From Podarcis cretensis (taxonomy: Eukaryota): 64,000 bases of DNA. How positions within the stretch are numbered: the stretch's first letter is position 1; the number at the start of each line of letters is the position of its first letter. The notes under the pieces are model-generated. The model saw nothing but the letters and a program-made list of their open reading frames with translations. It made no database searches and was not told the origin of the DNA. Of this stretch, positions 25,472-64,000 are shown piece after piece. Where the stretch lies: NCBI GenBank assembly GCA_951804945.1, contig OX638165.1, positions 13,950,001-14,014,000 of the forward strand. The letters are read 5' to 3'. The position numbers were made by a program, and so were the translations under genes.

Positions 25472-28400
25472 TGTGTTGGAAGATGCGATTTTGGAAGAGG
25501 ATGGCTAATCTCTCCTTGGCACGGAACCTAGCGCCTTTGAATCTTTTTCCAAGTCCCTGCAGGGAAATGTGGCAGGGAGCTGTATTTTTCTTGATAACAC
25601 GGCTTTAATGGGGATTGGGGTGGGGTGGGGGTGGGGAGATGCATCAAGAAAGCTGGGGGGGGGGGGCGAGAAAGAGAAAGGAGGCTGATCCAGGATCTCC
25701 TCCTCCTGTTCCAGCAGCACATGAAGTGCTGGAAAGATCTGAGGGTGGGGGAGTTAACATGTTTGTCTCCCATCAGAAAGCCTTTTTGCTAAACCTGACC
25801 CAATTTATATCTACAGAGAGAGGATGTTTTTAAAAGGAAGAGGGGGAATAAGGAATTTAGTTAAGCGTTCCTTGGCTCTTAGTGGCATTCTCCTACCCCC
25901 ACACCCACAGTTTTTAACCACAAATGAAATTAGATGCTACTTGATTGTAAAATCACCATCAACATCAAACTGTAGAATTGACAGAAGGGGCCCCAGGGTC
26001 ATCTAGCCCAACCCCCTGCCGTTCATTATTATCATGAATGATCATGTAAAAGCAGGGTGAATATACCAAGTGAAAGGATTTAAACATAAACAGAGGGAGA
26101 AGGAGGTCATTAATTGACCGAAACCCACTTTCCACCAATTAATGACTACCTCTCAGTTTTCCCATGTGTAAAATTGGAATGAAATAGTGGGCAAGCTTCA
26201 CCGCTTTGTGAGGGCAGATGCAGCAAGGATTTCGTCAGCACGTACAGCGTGGGTGTACCCCACGGTAAAAAGAAAAGGTGAAATGACGGAAGGAAGGAAT
26301 ATTAATTAAGATATACCAGGGATGATGGCTAGAGCTGGCCAAGCAAGTAGCATGTAGGGCTAACTCATAAGTCCACAATTCCAGACAAGTGCACAACACA
26401 CAAGACACAGAATTTAGCAATCTAAGAATTATCAGTTTTCAAGGGTTTCTTTTTTCTTAAGACTCTAGTCCTTAAGGCTACGATAATCAGTCATAAAGAA
26501 TTTATTCGTTTATTGCATTTATATCCCACCATTCCTCCAAGAAGATCAAGGCTGTGTACGTGGTTCTCCCCTTCTGATCCCCACAACAACCTTGTGAGGT
26601 AGGCTGAGAGACGGTGACTGGCCCAAGGTCCCTCAGTGGGCTTCATGACCAAGGGGGCATCTGAATCCTGGTCTCTCTCAAGTCCTAATCCGACAGCCTA
26701 ACCACCACACCACACTGACTCTCAGTGTGAATAATGTCCGCTGGAACCTTTTAAATTAGAGGGGCACTCATTACAATTGCTAGCAATTCAGGAAACAGAG
26801 GTCTATTCCTTTCCCGTGATAAGCCGGCACTAGATAAGAATACGATGAAAATAAATCAGTAAATCTGACTAGAATCCCATTTCCCTCCTCCAAGGCAGAA
26901 TTTGTCAATTATTATTTAAGTGCCAAATGTATGCATGCAGCAAGCTATCACAACACTAAAATACATGACCAAAAACCCCAACAAACCATACCGGGATTTT
27001 AGTCCAGAGGATTGGCTACCTGCTTAAGTCGGGACAAAATGATGACACCTGTCTGGGGAGGGTGAGCAAAGGAGCAAAATGCCACAGGTGAGGGAAGCAG
27101 CTGTGAAGATTTCTGGCACAAAGCCTCTGCCACAGGCGTGGGGAGCCTTTGACCCTCCAGATGTTGCCAGACCACATGCTTGCTAGGACTGATGGGAGTT
27201 GTAGTTCATCAACATCACTCTAGATCATTAGCCAATCAGGAAACCTGGAGTACAGCCAATCAGAGCCTGAGGAAAAACTCCCAGGCTTCTCAGGGTGCCT
27301 CTGGTGATGCATTAATGTAATTTGAGCCTGTGGCTCTGCAGACTGCCAGCTATGGCTACTGGGAGTTGTAACAGCTGAAGGGCCACAGGTTCCTCATCCA
27401 TGGGCTTCGTCAGGTTTTGAATGTAAAGGAAAGCGCCCCCTGAGCATGTGCAGAGAGCTTTACTTCTTGGTGCTGAGTAACCCAAAGCCAGTTGCCTCGC
27501 CCATTATCTGGAGAAAGATGGGGGCGAGAAATACACGGAGAACGTCCAGCTGCCAAAGCGCGAGACTCTTAATCTTAGGGTCATGGGTTCAAACCCCTTG
27601 TTGGGCAAAATATTCCTGCATTACAGGGGGGTTGGGCTAGATGACCCTCATGGTCCCTTCTAACCCTATAATTCTATGATTGTATCTCAAAAGCTTGGTA
27701 GCCTTTGTCTGCTGTGGGGAAGACCAGTCAAGTTGGCGTTCCTGGCAAGTCCCCCTGGGGAGGGCATTCCACGACTGGTGTGCCAACTCCTAGAAGGCAT
27801 TCTCTGGAAGACTTCGCTACCCATGGCAGCCTTCCCTGTTTAATGCAGGGATGGAGAACCTGCAGTCCTCTCTATGTTGCCGGGATACCAGCCAGCAGGG
27901 CCAATGGCGGGAGTTTTCACCCAGTGTCAGATCTGGAGGGCCACAGATTCCACTGCCACTCTCAAAGGCTACATGCACACTGGGACCTGCAGTCAGTGGC
28001 AGACCCACATTTTTGGGGCCCTGAAGAATGAACTGCTATGGGGTCCCCTTCGCAACCGACAACAAGGTCCGGGTAATCTTAGTTAAAAGGGTTGTTCCAC
28101 AACAGTTCACTACAATTTTTTAAAATTAAAAAATAGCCACTACATTTCATATTTTGATTAAAATTGCTCTATTAGACTATTTCACATCTCAAAGTCACTT
28201 GTGTGAATTCAAGTTATTTGCGGGGTGTGTGTGAAAATTAGGGAAATGTTATTTACATTCATGATGCGTTATAAAATGATTGTGAGTTGTGCGATTCAAA
28301 TTGGGTCTACTGGACCCAATTTTTTAAAAAGCAATGCAGACTAAAGTCATTTCTGGGGGGCCCCCTTGTATTAGAGACCCTGAAATTTAAGCTTCATTAG

Positions 28401-28769: not shown

Positions 28770-28980
28770 TATATGGATCGTGTGGGGTGGCAGAGCTCAA
28801 TGAAACCTTAGACACCCCTGACAAAAGAAAGAAAACATGGGCGCCAACTTGCTGCATGCTCTTCTGAGCCCGGTTTTTTGAACCGGGAAGGGCAGGGTAT
28901 AAATAAATAAATATTATTGTTATATATTATTATCTCTCTCTCCCTCCCTCTCTCTTTCCCCCTGCAGTTCACCTTTCCCA

Positions 28981-30199
28981 ATGCCTCCCTCGCCTCTGGA
29001 AGAACGGATCGGCGTGCTGCAGCGACCCAAAACTTTGGCCTTGCGCCTCAACCACAGCTTTGCCAACGGGGGCACCCCAGGCGGTGGCGAGAAGCAGCCC
29101 CCGGCGGTCTCCAGAGCGCCTGGCCAGGCCGCCCCGGCTCCCGCGAAGGCGCCCTGCGACGAGGCCGCACGCCGGGGGACGCCGGGCGTCCTGCAGCCCA
29201 ACCACTCTCACACCATTGACATCAAGCTGACGGTGGGAGGCGTGCAGAGCCTGTCGCCTGAGAGGAACGTCTCCCTGCAGCTGGACCTCAAGCAGGCCGA
29301 GCCTAAACCGAAAGGCCTCGCTGGGCCCCAGCTGAAGGTCTTCTTGCCCCAGGCGAAGCTCAAGAAGCGCTGCTTCAAGGAGAACTCCAAACCGGCGGTG
29401 CTGGACACATCCACCAGCTCCTCCTGCCTCTCCAGCCCCGCCATGCACCCCCTCAAATGCGGATGCCGCGGCTGCTGGCGCCTCATGCGCTGCGAGGACG
29501 CCGGACCCAAGGGCGGCTTGCTCTCCCTGGGCTGCTTCTCCTGCCGCTCCAGCCTGCGCTCCCTCAGCTGCTCCAGCTGCAGCCCGCCGTCCGTCAAGAA
29601 GCTGGGGTGCCTGCCCTGCACCCCCTCCTCGGCCCTGCACTCCCTGGCCTGCCTGGCTTGCAACCCCTCGGTCAAGTCGGGCAGCTCCTCCTGTAGCTTC
29701 TGCAGCAGCGACCCCATCGTGGCCTACGACCCCCGGGCGGGCTCGTCCCCGGCCCCCAGCTGCGGGGACGACGATGACTACAGCGTCCGCACCATCTGGC
29801 CCGACGAGCTGGCCAAGAAAATGACACGGTCCCGGGCGCAACAGCAGCAGCAGCAGCAGCATGTCTCCCCGCTCATCCTGGACTGCCGCAACCTGATGGA
29901 ATACACCAAGAGCCAGCTTCAGGGCGCCATGCGCTTCGGAGCCGCCGACGCAGCGGGCCGGAGGCGGCTCCAGCAGGGGAAGATGGCCATGCTAGATTTC
30001 ATCTCCTCGCGGGGAGGCTGCGACGCAAGGGACTCCTCGCTGCAGCGTCTCTGGGCCAAGGAGCCCGGCGGCCGCGCCAGTCCGGAGCCTCTCCCCGCCA
30101 GCCCCCCCAAGCCCCGCAAAACGCAGCCCTCCCAGAATCTCCACCTGGTGCTGGATTTGCTCAACAAAGATGGCGGGCAGGAAGGGGTCGGCCGGAGAG
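28981..30199 (+). CDS. DUSP10/MKP5-like MAPK phosphatase, coding exon 1: N-terminal region, CxxC array, kinase-binding (rhodanese-like) domain
   Basis: Acceptor at 28967/28968. Starts MPPSPLEERI (DUSP10 starts MPPSPLDDRV); TIWPDELAKKMT...ILDCRNLMEYTKSQLQGA...RRRLQQGK KIM; donor G|GTGAGC at 30199/30200 (phase 1). High GC3. Confidence 0.92.
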
Positions 30200-30519
30200 G
30201 TGAGCTGGGGGTTCTAGGTGCCGACCGCTGTGGTGGCAGCAGAAATTGCATTGGTGTGTCAAAAGTTCTTTCTCCTGGGGCCACCACTTCCCTAGTTGCC
30301 CTGAGCCTTCTGCTGGTCCGAGGGGAATGCGTTCTGGGCTAACACAATGTCTCCCCGCTTTAAAGAACTCCTGCCTCCAGACAAGAGGTTGATTATTTCT
30401 GCAAGGCTGTCGCTTATCCATCAGCCCTGAGTTTCCCTCGGGTCCTTCTCAGGCTTCCTGAGGTTATATTTTTCCTTATTACATTTTGTTCCACATTGAA
30501 CTACCTGTTTCCCGGCTGG

Positions 30520-32934: not shown

Positions 32935-33234
32935 GCAGTCTGATTGGGCCAGATGTTGCGGACGGCCCAGATGACTTGGGGCCCCCACTCACCCCTGACC
33001 TGGAGAATGCTGAGCTGAGCCCCATTCTGCCCTTCCTGTTCCTGGGCAACGAACGAGATGCGCAGGACCTCGAACGGATGCTGAGCCTCAACGTGGGGCA
33101 CGTTCTCAACGTCACCACCCACCTGCCCCTGTACCACGCCGACAGCGGGCGCCTGCGCTACAAGCGCCTCCCCGCCACCGACAACAACCGCCAGGACCTG
33201 CGCCAATACTTCGAGGAAGCTTTTGAGTTCATTG
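32935..33234 (+). CDS. DUSP10-like, coding exon 2: first half of DSP catalytic domain
   Basis: ACAG|GC acceptor and ATTG|GTGAGG donor, phase 1-1. [21 protein letters not shown]...[10 protein letters not shown]...YKRLPATD (general-acid Asp)...[12 protein letters not shown]. Confidence 0.95.
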
Positions 33235-33652: not shown

Positions 33653-33918
33653 AGGAGGCACACCAGAGCGGCAAAGGAGTCCTCATCCACTGCCAGGCCG
33701 GTGTCTCCCGCTCGGCCACCATCGTCATCGCCTACCTGATGAAGCACACTCTCATGACCATGGGCGACGCCTACAAGTATGTCAAAGGCCGAAGGCCCAT
33801 CATCTCGCCCAACCTCAACTTCATGGGGCAACTGCTGGAGTTCGAAGTGGACCTCAACGCCGGCGTCACACCCCGGATCCTCACCCCCAAGCTGGCCGGA
33901 GTGGAGACCGAAGTGTGA
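33653..33918 (+). CDS. DUSP10-like, last coding exon: active site and C-terminus
   Basis: CCAG|AG acceptor; [12 protein letters not shown] active site, [19 protein letters not shown], ends [16 protein letters not shown]-stop. Total CDS 1785 nt = 594 aa. Confidence 0.95.
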
Positions 33919-39310: not shown

Positions 39311-39735
39311 TCACTTCCTGGGGGCGGCAGAGGGGGACTGGCCCCTGCTCTCCCAGACTTCACGGATGGTGCGGCGGACCTCCCGCGGGAGGTGGAGGGT
39401 CTCGGAGTGGCACTGGAGGATGTGCTGCTTGACGGTGGCCAGGCAGATGCGGCGCAGAGGGTACTCGCACACCATGCAGACCAGGTGATTGGCCGCGGCG
39501 TCAAAATCCACGAGGAAGCGGGCGCGCCAGGTGGGGTTGAAGCTCTTGGCCAGGAGTTGGGCGTCCTCGCTGCCCGCTGCCGCCCGCTGCCGGCGGGGCT
39601 TGGCGTCGCAATCTTTGGCGTTGCTGCCGGGGGAGTTGGCCAGGGCGCGAGGGGCAGGGTCCCGTGGTGGGCAGAGCTGGCGGGGAGGAGGATCCGTGGA
39701 GTGGAGCCGAAGTAGAGACACAGAGCATTTGCGAT
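39311..39735 (-). CDS. SPINDOC: SPINDOC last coding exon, with a second SPIN-DOC-type zinc finger
   Basis: Pyrimidine tract plus AG (39736-39737), phase 1 matching the previous exon. WRARFLVDFD...LVCMVC...VKQHILQCH...IREVW; stop at 39311-39313. Confidence 0.8.
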
Positions 39736-41932
39736 CTGGGGAGGAAGAGGCGGCGAATTGAAACAACAGGCCGTTCGCTCAGTCCACCTATCCCAGAGTT
39801 GGAAGGGACAACGGGGGTCAACTGACCCAACTCTCCGCAATGCAGAAATGTTCTACCCAATGTGGGGCTCGAACCCACAACCCTGATATTCAAGGGTCTC
39901 GTGCTCTATCAACTGAGCTGCTCTCACAACTAAAAGTGAGCATTTAGACAGCAACGAAAGAGCTCAGCTGGATCAAGCCAAAGGCTGACCATCTAGCCCA
40001 GCCTCCCATTCTCATGGTGGCCAACCAGATGCCCATTATGGGAAGCTGATCACAGAATCAGAGTTGGAGGGGACCCTGGGAATCATCTAGTCTAACCCCC
40101 TGAAATGCATATGGGTATCGAACCTGCGACCCTGGGATCATCAGCACCATGCTCTAACCAATCAAGCTATCCAGGCTGCTAAGCAGGACTTGAGGACAAA
40201 AGTGCTCTCTCCAGCCACCCAGATAGATCAGTCGGCAGAGCACGAGACTTAATCTCAGGGTTGTGGGTTCCAGCCTCACACTGGGCAAAAAGATTCCTGC
40301 ACTGCAGGGGGTTGGACTAGATGACCCTCATGGTCCCTTCCAACTCTGTGATTCTGTGAATCCCCAGCAGCTGGTCCCCGGAGACATGTACTGCCTTCAT
40401 TTACTGCTTCCACTCTGGAAGTAAAGCAGAGCAGCTGTGGCTTGTAGTCATGAATAGCCTTAAGCATCATGAATTTGTGTAATCCTCTTTTATAGCCATC
40501 CAAGTTGGCGGGCAGTACCTACGCCTCAGAAATGCCCCTGGGAAGTCCCCAAGCATAGCAGAAAGCTCAGGGGGCGGGCAGGGCTGAGAATGGGGATATA
40601 TAAAGAGAAGAGATGTTGGTGTGCAAATCCTGCCTTGGGAGACGGAAGGAGTTCCAGTCCAGTTTTCAGCCGGGCTTCAGCCTTGGCTGAGCTTGGAGGG
40701 AATAAGCCAGTGATGTGAGGTTGCTCGTTTTGGTGACTTTTGATACACAGCCGGCAAGATTGGAGATAACATTCAGCCTCCCAATTAGCAGGGGGGAAAC
40801 CATAACACAGCAAGGACAAGAAACATCGCTTGTTTGTGCTAAAACAGGGGCGGTGAGTTTCTGGCCTGCAGGCCAATCCTGGCCAGGCAGGGGGTCCAGT
40901 TTGGCCAGCCCTACCTACCCGTCTGTCAGCTGCCGTCACTCAGGAAAATGGGTTCAATTCTGCCTTGGCTGTGGAAACAGGCACTTGCAGCCAGAGCGGG
41001 ATTTAGCACCCCTGGCAGTCAGCTGAAGAGTGGGTGGTGGGTGGGCCTAAATCCGACCCAGTTTTGCCCCTTGCGCCTGTTCCTTATTGGGAACAAGCAG
41101 CAAGACTTACCCACTGCTCTCTTCCTTGGGCCTGGCTTTGCTTCAGAGTCCTGGGGTGGTTCTGTAACAACAACATCGATAATACATTGTGGCCACCTGT
41201 AGGAACCCGTGCCATCAACATGCCCCCCAAATCCCAGAATAACAGAATTACGGAGTGGGAAGGAGCAGTGATCTGCAACATTCCAGGCAGAGGGCCGTCC
41301 CACCTCTCCTTAAGCCAACAGCTTCCAAGGAAGCCTGACTCCCTGCCATTTCCATCCCTTGGCTCTAGTTCTGCAGGTGGGGACGGGACTCAGATGTTGC
41401 TGGACTCAGTAACCCCTAGCCGTTGGCCGTGCTTGCAGGGGCTGATGGGAGTTGGAGTCTTCCAGACCTGCTTTAAGGGGTTAGAACATGGTGGCCAGTG
41501 TTCCGTTTTAAGGGTGGGGTGGGCAGCCTGTGGCCCTCCGGACATTGCTGGGAGCCCAACTTGCAACAGTCAAGGAGGGAGCTTTTCCCCCCAGCTTCCT
41601 GCCCCTGCCCTGCCCCTTCCACCACTGCCAGTTGCCAGGGTGGGAAAAGAGAAGTCGATGGGATGGGAGGCAGAGGGTGGGGAGAGGTCAGTACAAGTCC
41701 GAGCCTCCAGGACACCGACCCTCAAGCCTGACCGCGGCTCCGCCTCCACCTCCTCAGGGAGGCCATGTGACAGCCTGGCTGTGTGCATGTTGCATTTGAC
41801 AGGTAACGTGCCTCTGGTTTGGGCCCGGGCGGCAGTGGTAGCAATGCACACATGTTTTACCTGCTCCCCCCTTCCTTCTCCTTTCCCTCACGCAGGGAGA
41901 TTTTTAAGTATGACCGCCAAAGCACTAATCAC

Positions 41933-44026: not shown

Positions 44027-45562
44027 CTGGCAGGGGATAGTTTCAGAAAGGGGAATCAAAAGCGGCACACAGCACTGCATGTTTGCTCCACGGCAAAGAG
44101 TGGAAATGGGCAGCAGCGGGCAGAGGACTTGGCCTCCCAAGGATCTCATCTTCCGTTTAGGGGGAGGGAGAAAGGAAAGAGACAAGTTTCTAGCCCTTAT
44201 GGATGTGAATTGGTACTCCAAGGCAATGCCTGGAGGAATCTTGGTATCCAGGGTGGAGCTGAGAGAGAGAGAGGCTAAGTCAGTAGGCAATTGTCTAGGG
44301 CAGCCTTTGCATACCCAGAGCCCTCTGGGTGTTCTCAGCTACAACTCCCATCAGCCAACATGGCCAGGATGGCTGGGGCTGATGAGAGTTGTAGTTCCAA
44401 ACACCCAGAAGGTGCTTTCGCCAGCTGTTTGCTTCTCCCAGTGACTAACAGGCACAAACATAGGCAGAGTGATTGCATTTCTATACATTCTTCATGCATA
44501 AATACACAACTTCCTGGTTGCGTTGTCCAACCTAAAGGCCAGTATCTTCCAACTTCTGTAGTCATTAAATGCCGCTAAAACCCACAATTCAAGTGCTATT
44601 TCACTGTCAGTCCTCAGCACCATCAGGCCTCCTCTTGATCCCTACACTCAACTTTTGCCCTGGGACTGCAAAGATGGAGGGCAGCATGTCTGGACCTCTG
44701 CCACCACCCGGGGGTCTAAGGAAGGCAGCGCCCCCTGCCTTCTAGGAGGAACATCACAGCAAGGAGGAGACCAGCCTGACCCAGTCCAGTGGCCAGAGAA
44801 GGAGCAGCTGCAGAGAGCTGGCTTCCCCTCTCCGTGCCAGGGAGAACATTTATGAAACACTATGTAAGCGAGAACAAGTCCACGAGTTTGCTTTTTCCCT
44901 CCCAATCCTTTTTTCTTTTGTGCTGTGTCTTTTTTCAAGTCTGTAAACCTGTGGGCAGGCTCCGCCTTATCACTGGTTGTCTGCAAACTGCCCTGGCTTT
45001 TTCAGCTAAAGAGCAGAGAAAAACACTTCCACTGAAATGTTTGCCAACATCCTGTTAGTGTAGTCAAACAATGACTTGAAATGATTCTTGAAAGATTTTG
45101 CCCTAGCAACAAGTCTGCCCCTTATCAACAGGTTTCTTTATAAGGCAAGGTCTGGATCAGAGAGAGAGAGAGAGAGAGAGAGAGTTGGAGGCTGTTGCTC
45201 TGGCCAGATGGCTGAAGAGCACAGTGAGACAGAATGATTATCTGAACGTAGTTTTACTTTACTTTACTAGACTAGTGGTTCTACAAGATGTAATGTTAAT
45301 TTGACAATAAATGCATTCAGAAGAACCAAAATGTGAAGAAATGGATTCTGGAAGACTTTCTGGGCGACTCTGCTGACCGGAAAAGGAACCCCAAAGGATG
45401 GCAAACTGCACTGACACCCCCAGCCCCTTCTCCAGGAGGCACAGGGGAAATGGAAGAGGCAGACACAGAGGGCCACTTTATCTCAAAACCCAAAACCTTT
45501 TCCAGACACAACTGGAGATGGCACCATTTAATACAACACTGATCTGTGTTGGTGTGTGTTAC

Positions 45563-45847
45563 CTGCAGGGGAAGGTTGTGGCTCTGGCTCAGGAAGCACC
45601 ACCCCTTCGCTCCAGGCTTCCAGGATGTTGCGCTTCTCTTCGAAGCTGAAGTCCAAGGAGTGGGCGTGATGCTCCAGAATGTGTTTGCGGGCGGCCACAG
45701 GCCCCGAGGCACTCAGGTTGCCGCCGCACACCATGCACACTGGCTGCCTGCCCCCCGAGCTCTCGGCAATCAGGTACTCCTGACTCCAGGAGCTGCCTGC
45801 CTCTTCTGGGCCAACCTCGGCCACCGGGATTACAACCAGCCGCTCTC
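45563..45847 (-). CDS. SPINDOC: SPINDOC exon encoding the SPIN-DOC zinc finger
   Basis: SWSQEYLI...CMVCG...ARKHILEHHAHSLDFSFEEKRNILEAWSEGV matches human SWEQEFLV...CMVCG...ARSHILEQHPHTLDLSPSEKSNILEAWSEGV; 285 nt, phase 1-1. Confidence 0.93.
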
Positions 45848-46613
45848 CTGGGGGTGAGAAAGGGGGCACGTTGGGATGGAGGAGGGGTCTGATGCCAGCC
45901 TTGGAGACAGTTCCCATCTCCCTGATTCCTTGTGCGCGCTCTGCCCCCTTCCTTTCTCTAACAGACGCTGCCGGACTACAAGTCCCATCACCCCCCCCCA
46001 TGATCATGCTGGCTGAGACTGATGGGAGTTGGAGTCAGGGCAGGCAGAGAGAGCCCTTGGCTGCCCTATGGATGGCACTGGGAATGAACCTCCCATCAGC
46101 CACAGCCAGTGTGGCCTACCAGCAGGAATGGCGGTGGTTTTTGCCTAGAGAGTAGCCACAGGACCTCTACTCCTCTCTTCTAGGTCAGCCTCATTGGCTC
46201 AAGCTTTTTCCAACAAACAGCTCTTATTATTGTTTCACGGGCTAACTCAAGGCTGGAGGTCCTTTTCCATCCTAAGAACCCAATAAAAGCCCTGCAGGTT
46301 CAGGCCTGCAGCCCCTCCAGCACCTAATTCATGTAGTGGCCAGCAACAGACAGTGGAGGGAGAACATGGCCATTGAGGCTGGTAGCCATTGATCGCCTTG
46401 TCCTCCGTGAATTTGCCTAATCCTCTTTTAGGTTGGTGGACACCACCCCATCTTGCTGGAGGGAATCTCCCAGTTTAGCTATGTGCTGTGGGAAGAAGCA
46501 TTTCCTTTTGCATGTCCTCAAGCATCGGACTTTGTTGGGCATCCCTGAGTTCTAGGATGATACGAGGGGAGGGACTTTCCCTGTCCTGCGCCCTGGAGGG
46601 GCACGTTCCCCAC

Positions 46614-57624: not shown

Positions 57625-58567
<943 letters not shown>

Positions 58568-60293
58568 TAAATTCGCGGGTTTGTGGATCATCTTAATCGT
58601 AGCCACGGATAGCCTTATCCGTTCATTTTTTAAATCATTTTTTATTGATTTTCCAATAAAGACAGCCAATCAACATGCCCACATCATAATCTAATTAAAA
58701 ACAAAAAACTAAAATAAAAAAGGTCAAATTGTGATCCACATTTTAATTATTAATTTTTCCATGCTCCCCATAGTCTGGACCTCTGAAGCATATCTCCAAA
58801 TCTTCAGTCTTGCCTCCTCTCGTTGTTTTCATATTTTCCACATCCCGATCTTAACGCTTTAAAGTTCTCCATCCCTGGCTCTGCGATTCTCAGTCATGTC
58901 AAAAATCATATATTTATGATTTATGATGCCTTATCTTCTGTTTGTTGGTCTAATCCCACCCCCCTTTTTTAATATTGTCAGAAATGGTATATTTTTCTTC
59001 CATAGTGGTAATTTTTCTTCAATGACTATATTTTTTGGCCATAAAAATTATTACTTGAACAGATGAAAAAACTTTCAAAAAAAAACCCTGGCAACTAAAT
59101 TTTTATATAGGTTTCATTCAAAAAGAAAGAGAGCTATGTTTATAGTGTTTGTTGGACTTCAGATATGAGGCACCATTTTTTCATTAAATCTCAAAAAATA
59201 TTCCAAAACATTTATCATCATATCCTCCCCCCCAAAAAAATTCAACATAGATTTCTTCTTGACTTCCCGCCCCCCCCTTTCCTGATGTTTGTTTTCCACT
59301 TCTTTTTCTTAGCTGTTTTACAGTACATGTGTTTTTATTAACTAAACTTTGCTATCCTTAGTTCTTTCAGTAATCCACTGCTTATATTTCAATTCCTGCC
59401 CGCAGCTTTATGTATGGATGAAACTTTGATAGATAATCCTGACAACTAAATTGCTTAACACAGTGAGAGGGTTGGACTTGCACTGTGGGGACCCATGCAA
59501 CTTTTTTTACAGTTGGATATTCCTTTCACCCTTCCTTTTTATAAAAAGAATACGTTAAGTGGCCATCCCAAGCAGATAAGGAGGTTTTATTTTTATCTTT
59601 TTGTGAAGATTTTTAATTTAATTTTATAGTGTATATAAAAGTGAACAGATGAAAATTAAAAGATGAAAAGCAAAATGATAAAACAGGCATGTAGAATAAG
59701 TGCAGTTGTACACGGGTTAAAAAACACAAAGCCCAAGTAAATATTGTTGTGATCTGATTATCATAGTTCCAGATTTGCCAAGGTGGTGACGGGGGTTGTC
59801 TTGAAAATGACGGTTCCCTTGTATATGTCATAAAGGAATGCCAAATCATATGTCTGGAGGTTCTAGGCTTGTCAAAATCTCAAATTATGTGTGATTTTTT
59901 TCCATTATAGCTGTATTCCAGAGGGGATGGTACCAAGTGTTTAGCGTAATATTTTGGGCTTTCCCCCCCCCTGAGTTTCAATTACTATTCAAGCTGCCAC
60001 AATCATATATATAAGACCAATTCTTTTTTTTCTTTTCTCAATTAATTTATTATTAATGTTGCAATACATATATAAAATCTTTACATATTGATACATATAC
60101 ATTATATTTGTAAATTTACATTTCACATGTGAAATATAAGACCAATTCTTCTGACATTGTAGATATCAGTAACATTAATTTTGGACAGCAGACAATAGTT
60201 TATTTAATAATGTTCATCATCTCTGATGAAATTAGATTCCGAAAAGCAGACAAGAAGGTTCACCTGCTCTCCACCTGCCTTGCTTCTGTACAG

Positions 60294-60683
60294 GTGGAGA
60301 ATTTCCGCTGAGTAGCAGCCGCAGGAGGCGCCGTGGCCCAGGACCCCTCTCCTCTCGTGGGGGGCGACGACCCTCCGGCCTGGCCCTGAAAGCCTCCCCG
60401 GGAGTGGAAGAGCAGAACTTGGAGCGCTACCTGAAAGAGTCCCTGCAGAGCTGGTTCCAGTCTGAGTTCCTGATGGACTATGACCCTCAGGGCAACCGCC
60501 TCTTCTGCATGATGTGTGGCTCCTCACTGCCCAGCCTCAACTTGGACGACATCAAGAGGCACGTCATGGATGCCCACCCCAGCTCGCTTGGCTTCAGCCC
60601 CGCCGAGAAAGCCAGCATCCTGGAGACTTGGAACGCCCGGGCCGTGGTCCCGCCAGCTGAGGGCACAGGAGAGACACCAGTGG
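60294..60683 (+). CDS. ZFTA: ZFTA exon 3, zinc finger 2
   Basis: LERYLKESLQSWFQSEFLMDYDPQGNRLFCMMCG..LPSLNLDDIKRHV...HP; ACAG|GT acceptor and GG|GTGAGG donor, 390 nt, phase 1-1. Confidence 0.93.
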
Positions 60684-62430
60684 GTGAGGCAGGAAGTGGG
60701 CAGAAGGCGGGAGGGGAGGGCGGAAGCAGAGCGCCGGAATTAGAACGATATTTCAGCAGGCCTGCAAGTGACATGATCATGCAGGTGGCGGGAAAGTAGA
60801 TAAATACAGTCGTGCCTTGGTTGACAAACGCCTTGCGACTTAAACATTTTGGCTCCCGAACGCTGCAAACCTGGAAGTGAGTGCTCCGGTTTGCGAACGT
60901 TCTTTGGAACCCAAATGTCCAACGCGGCTTCCTGCAGCCAATTGGAAGCTGCACCTTGGTTTCCAAACATTTTGAAAGTCGAACGGGCTTCCAGAACAGA
61001 TTCCATTTGACTTCCGAGGTACCACTGTTAATGGAGAATGCGGAGGGTGAAGAAACTGGTGGAAGAGGCTGTCTGAGACCTTGCGAAGGCCACATGGGAT
61101 TTTGCGTGACCTTCGCAGAGCCCAGTAAGCAAGGCAGAGGGCTTGGAAATCTCTTTCTGCACCAGTTTTTCCTGCTGTGGAAATAGTTTTTAAGCCGTCA
61201 GCCTTGCTTCCCGGGCTGCTGGAACCCTCAGGAAGGGTGTGGACTGCCCCAGAGCATTCCTGAGGCCCCTTCCCGGAGTCCAGGAAGGTAGGATTGGTTG
61301 TACAGAGGGGAGGTTCCAGGTATCTTCCTGACTTTGCATGATTCTGTATCTGCTCATGAATCCCTGGAGCGTAAGCCCCACATAAGTTTTGGGCCTGCTG
61401 TGTTGCTTCTCTGAATCAGGCACCGTACTTAAAATCGAGGAACTCCTGTCTCTAGCTTCTTCTTGAAGGAAATCCTGGGATACATGCTAGTGACCAAGGA
61501 TAAGGGAACCTGGCGTTGTCCGTATGGTACAGAACTCCAGTTCCCAGCAGCCACAGCCAATGGTCGGGGGGAGGGCCAAACAGCAGGTGCAAACAGGAAC
61601 CTCATTCCTCCGAAACCTTGTGTAACCAGAAAGTGAGGCATCCAGCAGTCTCTTGTGGGAGGGAGAGCGGAACCAAGAGTTGCGCAAGTACAAAACAGAT
61701 AAGTGAGTGCGGACTGAGCATGCTCAGTGGGCACAGAATCCTGGTGAGTGGCAAAACCCGGAAAATCAAAGATAGGCGTGCGGAATGGAGTGTCCTCAAA
61801 ACGGGGATGGCTTGCGAGTAGGAAACAAACTGCCTTGAACCTTTGGTGCATCTAGCTCAGTATTGTCTTCGCTATCTGTACTATACATTTGAAAGCAGTA
61901 TCATGCCACTTTAAATAGCCATGGCTCCCCACCCCCCCACCCCAAATCCTGGGAGTTATAGTTTGCTAAAGGTACTGAGAGTTATTGAGTGAATCCCCTT
62001 GTCACAGAGCTACACTTTCTGTCTCTTCCCGGGGAATTCTGCGAATTGTAGCACTGTGAGAGGAATAAGGGTCTCCTAACAAATCTTAGCACCCTTAACG
62101 TGTCACTGTTCCCAGAACTACAAAGGGGTGATCGTTACTGCGGATGAATTGGATCAGAGCAGAGGATGCAAAGTGAGGCACATATAGAGGGCCAGACAAG
62201 AACCTTGGCAGTACTATGCATGGGTTCTGCTTTATGAATGAGAAACAGCGAACATTCACCTGTCCAAACATGAAGAATGGCTACCCAAACATCGCTAGAC
62301 ACATTGCAGATTCAGATACTTGAACAGAGAGCATCCTCTACTTCCTTGCTTGCCGTTTGCTGGCTGGTGGAGCAATGAAGTGAGAGAGTGAGAGATCAGA
62401 CAAATCAGAGCATTTTTTCTGTTTTTCGGT

Positions 62431-62709: not shown

Positions 62710-62794
62710 GTGTGTTCGGTAAGCAGGACCTTTGTGTAATTAAATCCGTCCTCTTGTCCCCCCGCTTTCCCACTCCTTCCTGGATCCACCCCAG

Positions 62795-63220
62795 AGGCAG
62801 AGTCTGAGCCGTCCCCTCAGGACCTGACCAAGAAGGAGGTGGACCCTCCCACGTCCCCAGACCAGCCTGCTGGCGAGGACGGCTCTGAGGAGGCCGGCGC
62901 TTGGGACTCGGAAGAGAGTGGCCTTCCTGCCCCGGCCCGGGGGAGGGACCACCGCCGCTACTTCCAGGAGCACTGGCGGGTGGAGTACTTGATGGACTAC
63001 AACGGGTCGCGCCACGGCCTGGTGTGCATGGTGTGCGGGAGCTCCTTGGCCACGCTCAAGATGAGCACCATCAAGAGGCACATTCAGCAGAAGCACCCGG
63101 ACTCCACCCAGCTGAGCCACCACGTCAAGGCCCTCATCGTGGAGGAGTGGAACCAGAAGGTGGCCCGCCTGGCGGACGCGGAAGACTCCTTGCCCGAAAC
63201 AGACGGCGAGGCAGACAAAG
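62795..63220 (+). CDS. ZFTA: ZFTA exon 4, zinc finger 3 (gene continues beyond the window)
   Basis: GRDHRRYFQEHWRVEYLMDYN...[25 protein letters not shown]; CCAG|AG acceptor and AAG|GTAAGG donor, 426 nt, phase 1-1. Confidence 0.93.
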
Positions 63221-63276
63221 GTAAGGGGCAGGCGGGGTTTGAACCCCCCCCCGGTGCATTTTGCTCCTGGTATATT

Positions 63277-63320
<44 letters not shown>

Positions 63321-64000
63321 CTTTATTATTATTATTCAGCCAGCTAGCCTTGGTGATTATCTAATGCTTATTAGATGAATTTCCCCTAAATTGATTTCTG
63401 AACTTTGGATTTTATTGTTAATTCACGTTTTTATACTGTATTTTATGCTGCTTTTACAATTGTTTTAAATTTGTTGTTAGGCGCCTGAGCCCAGTTTTTG
63501 AACCAGGAAGGGCAGGGTATAAATAAATTATTATTATTATTTATTGGTATTGTACAACCTGTGTACAATGAAATTAAACGAGCCTCCCGCCCCCAAACAC
63601 TCAATCTCTTATTGAACAACACACCACCTGGTGCAGGCCTCATTGTGACTACTTGGAGATTTCAGGCTGGAGAATTGAAAGAGATCACAAGGGTCATCTA
63701 GTGCTCCCCCTGCAATGCAGTAATCCTCCCCCCCCCCCGCATTGTGGGGCTCACACCCACGACCTTGAGATTAAGAGCTTGATGCTCTGCTGACTGAGCT
63801 ATCCCAGCTGCTCCAAGATGTGCCAGGGGAAAGCATTCAAAATGTGCTTGTGCTCCTGCAGGCTGAAGCTGTACAGTTCCGCCTCTGGATCCTACTCCCC
63901 GATTTCTGCCTTGTTTTTCGGCAAACTAAACCCTCCAGATGTTTTGGGACTACAACTCCCATCATCCCTAGCTAACAGGACCAGTGGTCAGGGATGATGG

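Follow-up and report, generated by a model that had tools for sequence, protein, structure and literature searches.

The window, a stretch of 64,000 nucleotides from the genome of Podarcis cretensis, contains a gene which on sequence comparison is not a modified DUSP10 but a separate DUSP10 paralogue older than the split between sharks and bony fish. This unstudied ancient paralogue carries in its N-terminal part a real, conserved and uncatalogued Cys-rich module, and the sequence evidence that translation also starts at a second codon in front of it is good. The conserved second Met before the module and the incomplete kinase-binding domain described below are additions to the original prediction. 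For the module we favor, at a probability of about 45%, a role as an anchor S-acylated (palmitoylated) at several sites, which would keep the predicted JNK/p38 phosphatase on membranes.

Joining of three coding exons across GT-AG introns yields a frame of 594 aa without internal stops, and 584 of 595 alignment columns are identical between its product and the 'DUSP10-like' protein P0001 from Podarcis muralis. The exons are the following:
26935..27087 (+): probably an exon upstream of the coding ones, either 5' UTR or, in some Podarcis models, part of an extended N-terminus; detected by tblastn with P0251 and P0246 in two frames
28968..30199 (+): first large coding exon, with an acceptor before 28968 and a donor GT at 30200, phase 1
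32935..33234 (+): second coding exon, in which the dual-specificity phosphatase domain begins
33653..33918 (+): last coding exon, with the intact active site H-C-Q-A-G-V-S-R-S (33688-33714) and then the stop

The coding part of the first large exon extends from ATG 28981 to 30199 (1,219 nt, 406 aa). The upstream exon is out of frame in this genome and contains several ATGs and a donor. A search for an extra exon that would supply the end lacking from the kinase-binding domain found none, and the longer RefSeq isoforms differ N-terminally. At the start of the kinase-binding domain, a CAG/GCA repeat (29838-29861) encodes poly-Gln, the length of which differs among lacertids. Further downstream, Spin-doc zinc-finger exons (PF18658) are present on both strands (45528-46031, minus; 57779-58567 and 60236-60796, plus), as are similar ORFs at 39311-39778 (minus) and 62740-63378 (plus). 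We take the Spin-doc exons to belong to two divergent genes, probably SPINDOC and ZFTA. Human SPINDOC and ZFTA presumably adjoin MARK2 and human DUSP10 presumably lies near MARK1, neighborhoods that would fit a genome-duplication pair with DUSP10; a first-exon search of the window with short patterns revealed no MARK exon.

The host gene had originally been taken for DUSP10 itself, an assignment that has to be revised. Podarcis muralis possesses both copies, the paralogue P0001 and a canonical DUSP10 of 481 residues (P0138). In an unrooted tree of 47 chosen proteins, calculated from the kinase-binding and catalytic domains only (the Narcine row being uncut) and with neither lamprey nor invertebrate outgroup, DUSP10-like proteins and canonical DUSP10 form two groups with support of 100/100, and the window gene falls inside the group named DUSP10-like or, in teleosts, si:dkey-175m17.7. 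Each group spans sharks, ray-finned fish and lobe-finned lineages and, as far as an unrooted tree can be read, the duplication therefore predates the jawed-vertebrate radiation. Carriers of the paralogue by name are sharks, rays, bichir, sturgeon, gar, teleosts, coelacanth, lungfish, caecilians, salamanders, one frog, turtles and squamates. No such name from a bird, crocodilian or mammal occurs among the matches listed (58 of 58; best 120 of 152), whereas canonical DUSP10 of birds and mammals did turn up among the best 120 of 770 matches, which may point to a loss of the paralogue in birds, crocodilians and mammals. GC-rich genes are often absent from bird assemblies. The only frog orthologue found, P0050 from Discoglossus, has a long branch, lacks the basic docking segment and retains of the module only the head plus a truncated tail; the gene may be decaying in frogs.

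In the frame from ATG 28981, CxxC motifs begin at aa 162, 185, 197, 210, 224 and 238 (first Cys codons at 29464, 29533, 29569, 29608, 29650 and 29692), with spacings of 23, 12, 13, 14 and 14, and the stretch from the first to the last Cys (29458-29703) comprises 82 aa with 14 Cys. Six CxxC within 82 aa were reached in none of 20,000 shuffles of the 406-aa exon protein. When the 82-aa module alone was shuffled, 137 of 20,000 shuffles gave at least six CxxC at any spacing and none gave five CxxC at 12-14 spacing, the spacing at which the last five motifs recur. The strict consensus L-[GSA]-C-x-x-C-x-[PS]-S that had been proposed for these five applies to three of them in P0001 and not to the others, the last unit having a sequence of its own. 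As no tandem repeat was found beneath the units at the DNA level, they are not the result of recent slippage. Three parts can be distinguished:
29458..29493 (+): head block C-G-C-x-x-C-W-x5-C, with the last three Cys present in all 28 lungfish and tetrapod rows and the first one in 22 of them
29518..29640 (+): variable inner units, three here, with the consensus L-R/K-x-L-G/S-C-hydrophobic-x-C-x-P-S
29650..29730 (+): near-invariant last pair C-x2-C-x10-C-x2-C, followed by S-S-D-P-I-V-x-Y-D

Alignment of orthologues shows that the Cys are largely invariant and the number of repeats is not. Of the 14 module Cys, 11 are each present in 27 or all of the 28 orthologues from lungfish and tetrapods, and this holds for both Cys of each of the last three motifs. 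The pattern C-x2/3-C-x10/11-C-x2-C occurs in 153 of 159 DUSP10-like proteins and in none of 98 canonical ones, a count that is partly built in because the 159, which include isoforms and close relatives, were selected by a pattern containing the last Cys. The number of CxxC motifs ranges from 1 to 7 across 61 orthologues chosen from the 159, while head and tail blocks are nearly fixed. The second Cys is missing from 24 of the 73 distinct inner units that 20 proteins supplied, while Leu, Arg/Lys, Leu, Gly/Ser and a hydrophobic residue are retained at positions -5, -4, -2, -1 and +1, respectively. The module is net basic (K+R 8-18%, D+E 2-7%). Its identity to P0001 is 84% in squamates (15 proteins), 85% in turtles (5), 74% in amphibians (5), 69% in lungfish and 50% in sharks and rays (7), as compared with 73, 63, 58, 59 and 38% for the kinase-binding domain and 60, 52, 30, 28 and 20% for the upstream linker in the same order. 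In every group the module is thus more conserved than the kinase-binding domain and it lies far above the flanking linkers.

No Pfam family matched the module of P0001 at E values up to 1, 12 aligned members gave sub-threshold matches only, and the best E value in PDB sequence searches was 0.059; this is in accord with the original view of a conserved module on a MAPK phosphatase that corresponds to no described domain. A profile search of 1.84 billion representatives returned 11 proteins, six of this paralogue and five unrelated perfect tandem repeats (P0240-P0244), which were rejected as relatives of the module, and canonical DUSP10 was absent from the 11. Two of the five, P0241 and P0242 from snails, consist C-terminally of perfect 11-residue Cys-containing repeats, are probably translated minisatellites and match the profile by composition. 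The ESM Atlas gave no usable match for the module or for residues 1-270. AlphaFold2 modeling of P0001 gave pLDDT values of 35-43 and no secondary structure for the module; the control, canonical P0138 at equal alignment depth, failed likewise, its known kinase-binding fold being left unbuilt, and these models therefore permit no conclusion as to whether the module is disordered or the kinase-binding domain unfolded.

Upstream of the module, the following features bear on translation initiation:
28981..28983 (+): Met1, in a weak Kozak context with C at -3 and C at +4
28984..29442 (+): poorly conserved linker, of which residues 25-154 show 20-60% identity across groups
29443..29445 (+): Met155, the second in-frame Met and predicted start of a short isoform, with G at -3

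Met155 is located five residues ahead of the first module Cys, and 58 of the 60 orthologues from outside the teleosts share it. An equivalent of Met155 is absent from teleosts, 62 of 69 of which have a Met-Gly at another site further into the module. In 18 lineage representatives, only 5 Met occur in 3,931 linker residues versus 94 in 5,238 downstream residues (1.8%), a depletion with P 7e-12 even at a rate of 1%, although the rows are related (median pairwise linker identity 0.35) and the counts are not independent. The linkers show no depletion of Ile, Asn, Lys, Leu or Val, a partial one of Cys and also one of Trp (0.33 versus 1.15%). The teleost linker, which is enlarged to about 370 residues, has 3 Met in 26,032 residues. 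The DNA context of start codons was read in the window only and that of orthologues was deduced from protein; on this basis, in 118 of 127 cases the residue ahead of the second Met, one of eight different ones, has only codons that place a purine at -3, with 7 ambiguous cases and 2 forced pyrimidines. In 11 of the 12 models with an upstream extension, the residue ahead of Met1 is Pro. Within the window, the 459 nt of the linker contain no ATG, whatever the frame, versus 11 in the next 754 nt; for out-of-frame ATGs alone, a codon shuffle was uninformative (P of zero 0.78) and a base shuffle gave 0.027.

A weak first AUG, no AUG in between and a conserved second AUG in good context are thus all present, and these sequence features suggest that the start at Met155 is probably in use and gives rise to a short isoform. 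Such an isoform would begin with the module and lack the JNK-docking motif. Against a simple scanning scheme, the probable upstream exon bears ATGs and some gene models begin further upstream. If the upstream exon is spliced as in the Podarcis models, an out-of-frame ORF of some 86 codons would begin at ATG 27079 (27079-27087 joined to 28968-29219), extend across Met1 and end at 29219, ahead of Met155; translation of this ORF could shift the balance of the two isoforms. The tetrapod short form would start with Met-His and so offers no priming site for myristoylation. In teleosts (P0081, P0109, P0113 and others) the second Met is followed by Gly, with a Cys at position 9. The myristoylation consensus includes Ser or Thr at position 6. 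Although this residue is lacking, the start of the teleost short form is a possible myristoyl-plus-palmitoyl signal.

The remainder of the protein is that of a MAPK phosphatase with an altered kinase-interaction region. The catalytic domain of P0001 matches DSPc (PF00782, E 3e-40) with an intact C-x5-R motif, and its best PDB match is human DUSP10 itself (2oud_A, E 6e-90); the enzyme is a predicted JNK/p38 phosphatase. Three further features concern kinase binding:
29023..29043 (+): R-P-x-x-L-x-L, a JNK docking motif of the JIP1 type, which corresponds in position to residues 18-24 of DUSP10
29782..30180 (+): eroded rhodanese-type kinase-binding domain, matching 3tg1_B of human DUSP10 (E 2.4e-22)
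29959-29976 (+): basic docking segment R-R-R-L-Q-Q within the kinase-binding domain, kept in the window

The Pfam Rhodanese score is 17.2 bits for P0001 (cut-off 22.2) as compared with 50 bits for canonical P0138. The central element of the I-V-V-Y-D-E type is found in 0 of 159 DUSP10-like and 98 of 98 canonical proteins, and the C-terminal element G-G-x-x-x-F in 0 of 107 DUSP10-like proteins in which the pattern could be tested and 72 of 86 canonical ones, coelacanth having a looser variant. Judged by these elements, the kinase-binding domain is homologous to that of MKP5 yet incomplete, unlike that of a classical MKP. The basic docking segment is retained in 133 of 159 DUSP10-like proteins and is missing from the sampled snakes, sharks, rays and frog. 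As p38, but not JNK1, is described to require the kinase-binding domain of MKP5 (PMC4802042), a shift of the paralogue towards JNK would be a reasonable inference from the incomplete domain. A JIP1-type motif at DUSP10 18-24 is recorded in PMC4670726, and residues R15, P16, L19 and L21 of the corresponding motif in the paralogue are each present in at least 90% of 63 rows. The first 24 residues, which include this motif, are 69-98% conserved, and the long form is accordingly under selection as well.

The variable number of motifs, the single-Cys units, the basic and hydrophobic flanks and the N-terminal exposure in the short form are together best accommodated by an S-acylation anchor. Ribosomes that pass the weak first AUG and meet no AUG in the linker would initiate at the second Met, so that two isoforms would be made, a long one with the JIP1-type motif and a short one beginning with the module. 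Several module Cys would then be acylated by zDHHC enzymes, aided by flanking Lys/Arg and Leu, and co-localization on membranes with acylated JNK modules would compensate for the eroded kinase-binding domain. S-acylation sites of proteins with no other lipid or transmembrane segment are described as often lying in basic or hydrophobic regions, and JNK2/3 and DLK as being S-acylated on vesicles (PMC11417247). The module Cys do lie in such surroundings, a property that is at most necessary and not sufficient. Dual palmitoylation of Cys spaced by 3 or 2, as in the module, is listed for H-Ras (181/184), Fyn (3/6), CD4 (394/397) and Lck (3/5) (PMC7655920). Those proteins have one such pair beside a farnesyl, myristoyl or transmembrane anchor, whereas the module has up to seven pairs and in tetrapods no other evident anchor. 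Since palmitoylation is described as having no consensus (PMC7655920), the match of the module cannot be scored, and the published Cys pairs and the basic/hydrophobic rule are analogies for the module rather than tests. The near-invariant late motifs and the nearly fixed last-pair spacer speak against an anchor, as they look more structural than a lipid site needs.

These same late motifs argue for the chief rival, zinc binding, in which the last two motifs would form one Cys4 site and the upstream units would be optional extra sites or would clasp a Cys pair of a partner. Both Cys of each late motif are conserved, the last-pair pattern is nearly universal (with the selection of the set noted above), its 10-residue spacer equals that of RanBP2/NZF fingers, and the module weakly resembles FHL1 LIM chains (E 0.059) and, in 3 of 12 members and at E 1.3, DZR. 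However, no Pfam zinc finger was significant and the last-pair spacer is mostly Ser, Gly and Pro. Notechis and Polyodon lack a late Cys, Discoglossus is without most of the array, and CxxC counts are odd in 23 of 38 orthologues outside ray-finned fish, which were left out as one of their pairs is C-x3-C. With a count of 1-7 and many units lacking the second Cys, the three fixed Cys4 sites originally envisaged as an upper limit are unlikely as a fixed design, and zinc binding in the looser form just given is rather unlikely as the role of the module. S-acylation and zinc binding could also both be true, for different parts of the module.

The individual zinc-binding candidates were rejected. 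LIM domains have eight ligands including His at fixed spacing, and the stretch aligned at E 0.059 has no His and lacks one Cys. NZF fingers have the consensus W-x-C-x2-C-x3-N-x6-C-x2-C, of which the last pair of the module matches the spacing and not the Trp and Asn, with no Pfam match; the DZR resemblance was likewise discarded. The module thus shares CxxC pairs with RanBP2/NZF and LIM domains, the NZF spacer length in its last pair and a weak LIM alignment, but it lacks their defining Trp, Asn and His, has variable spacing and gives no significant profile match. The original statement that no such domain is known in MAPK phosphatases stands for catalogued families, and it needs qualification by the precedent of Yvh1/DUSP12, in which a Cys-rich zinc domain is joined to a dual-specificity phosphatase domain (PMC9404827). 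That domain differs from the module in being C-terminal, folded, shown to bind zinc and built on seven fixed Cys, in an atypical DUSP (PMC9404827), and the module did not match it in PDB searches.

The inner units might instead be repeated short docking motifs for a protein partner, with Cys serving as small hydrophobic residues. Conservation of the Leu and Arg/Lys positions is similar to that of the second Cys, the number of units varies, and linear docking motifs are already present in the protein. On the other hand, the fixed blocks keep Cys and do not replace it by Val or Ala (the inner units having been defined on a Cys), and the JIP1 class (PMC4670726) has a longer spacing between the basic residue and Leu; this reading is improbable. 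Less probable again is a redox switch or sink, in which CxxC disulfides formed under peroxide would protect or gate the catalytic Cys. In phosphatases of this family that residue is prone to oxidation, and the CxxC chemistry would suit such a role, but the single-Cys units (24 of 73) are unable to form an intra-motif disulfide and no thioredoxin-like family was matched. That the array is a low-complexity expansion with no function of its own, as its Ser-richness, variable length and near loss in one frog might suggest, is very hard to reconcile with an identity of 69-85% across lungfish and tetrapods versus 58-73% for the kinase-binding domain, with the much lower identity of the flanking linkers and with the lack of an underlying DNA repeat.

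Canonical DUSP10 was expected to have only a short Cys patch at the position of the module, and this is what was found, namely R-S-L-x-C-G-C-x4-C-C with 3-5 Cys at the matching place and no array in any of 98 proteins. The patch is the best unit-like window in 91 of the 98, and in the five proteins tested 3-24 of 1,000 shuffles were as good. A profile-profile comparison of the module with the canonical N-terminus aligned 5 columns at a probability of 1%; this support is negligible, and homology accordingly depends on position and a short motif. On these two, module and patch are likely to have a common origin, with the direction of change unrooted, and the earlier suggestion of an internal expansion of the patch is plausible in that the patch resembles one unit. 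Canonical DUSP10 of sharks and rays (P0139, P0145, P0149, P0177) has one CxxC downstream of the patch, at a site that in other vertebrates has one Cys or none.

Canonical DUSP10/MKP5 resembles the paralogue in having the closest catalytic domain, an N-terminal R-P-x-x-L-x-L and the basic docking segment, and it differs by its separate tree group, the lack of the array and a complete rhodanese domain. It also has a second Met ahead of the Cys patch in 94 of 94 proteins. Unlike in the paralogue, this Met follows Tyr in 93 of 94, which gives a weak context; it is invariant, with no Met between it and the first, and it lies in a conserved stretch of 60 residues. The case for a second start in canonical DUSP10 is thus weak.

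The paralogue is annotated automatically in many genomes and no paper on it was found in literature searches. No title or abstract on the paralogue, the module or the second start came up in a search outside which most subscription papers and the supplements lay; the gene may stand under a LOC number in supplements, and palmitoyl-proteome tables could name DUSP10. A genome-wide survey of catfish DUSPs gives a 461-residue DUSP10 only (PMC11598348). S-acylation of phosphatases is called sparsely studied in a source in which JNK modules are known as acylated (PMC11417247), and the DUSP10 N-terminus of about 150 aa is described as being of unknown function (PMC4802042, PMC6480380).

A wider and doubtful proposal is that jawed vertebrates had a second MKP5 gene which would make, from one mRNA, a long JNK-docking and a short palmitoyl-anchored form, would have traded the kinase-binding fold for a lipid anchor with the number of units setting its strength, and of which the human DUSP10 patch would be the one-unit version. 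The paralogue magnifies a conserved Cys patch of DUSP10 into an array with a likely start codon in front, and so yields a specific prediction for human DUSP10. If the proposal is true, the paralogue would be a membrane-tethered MAPK phosphatase whose anchor strength is set by unit number, and the one-unit Cys patch after the second Met would give a function to the unexplained N-terminus of DUSP10.
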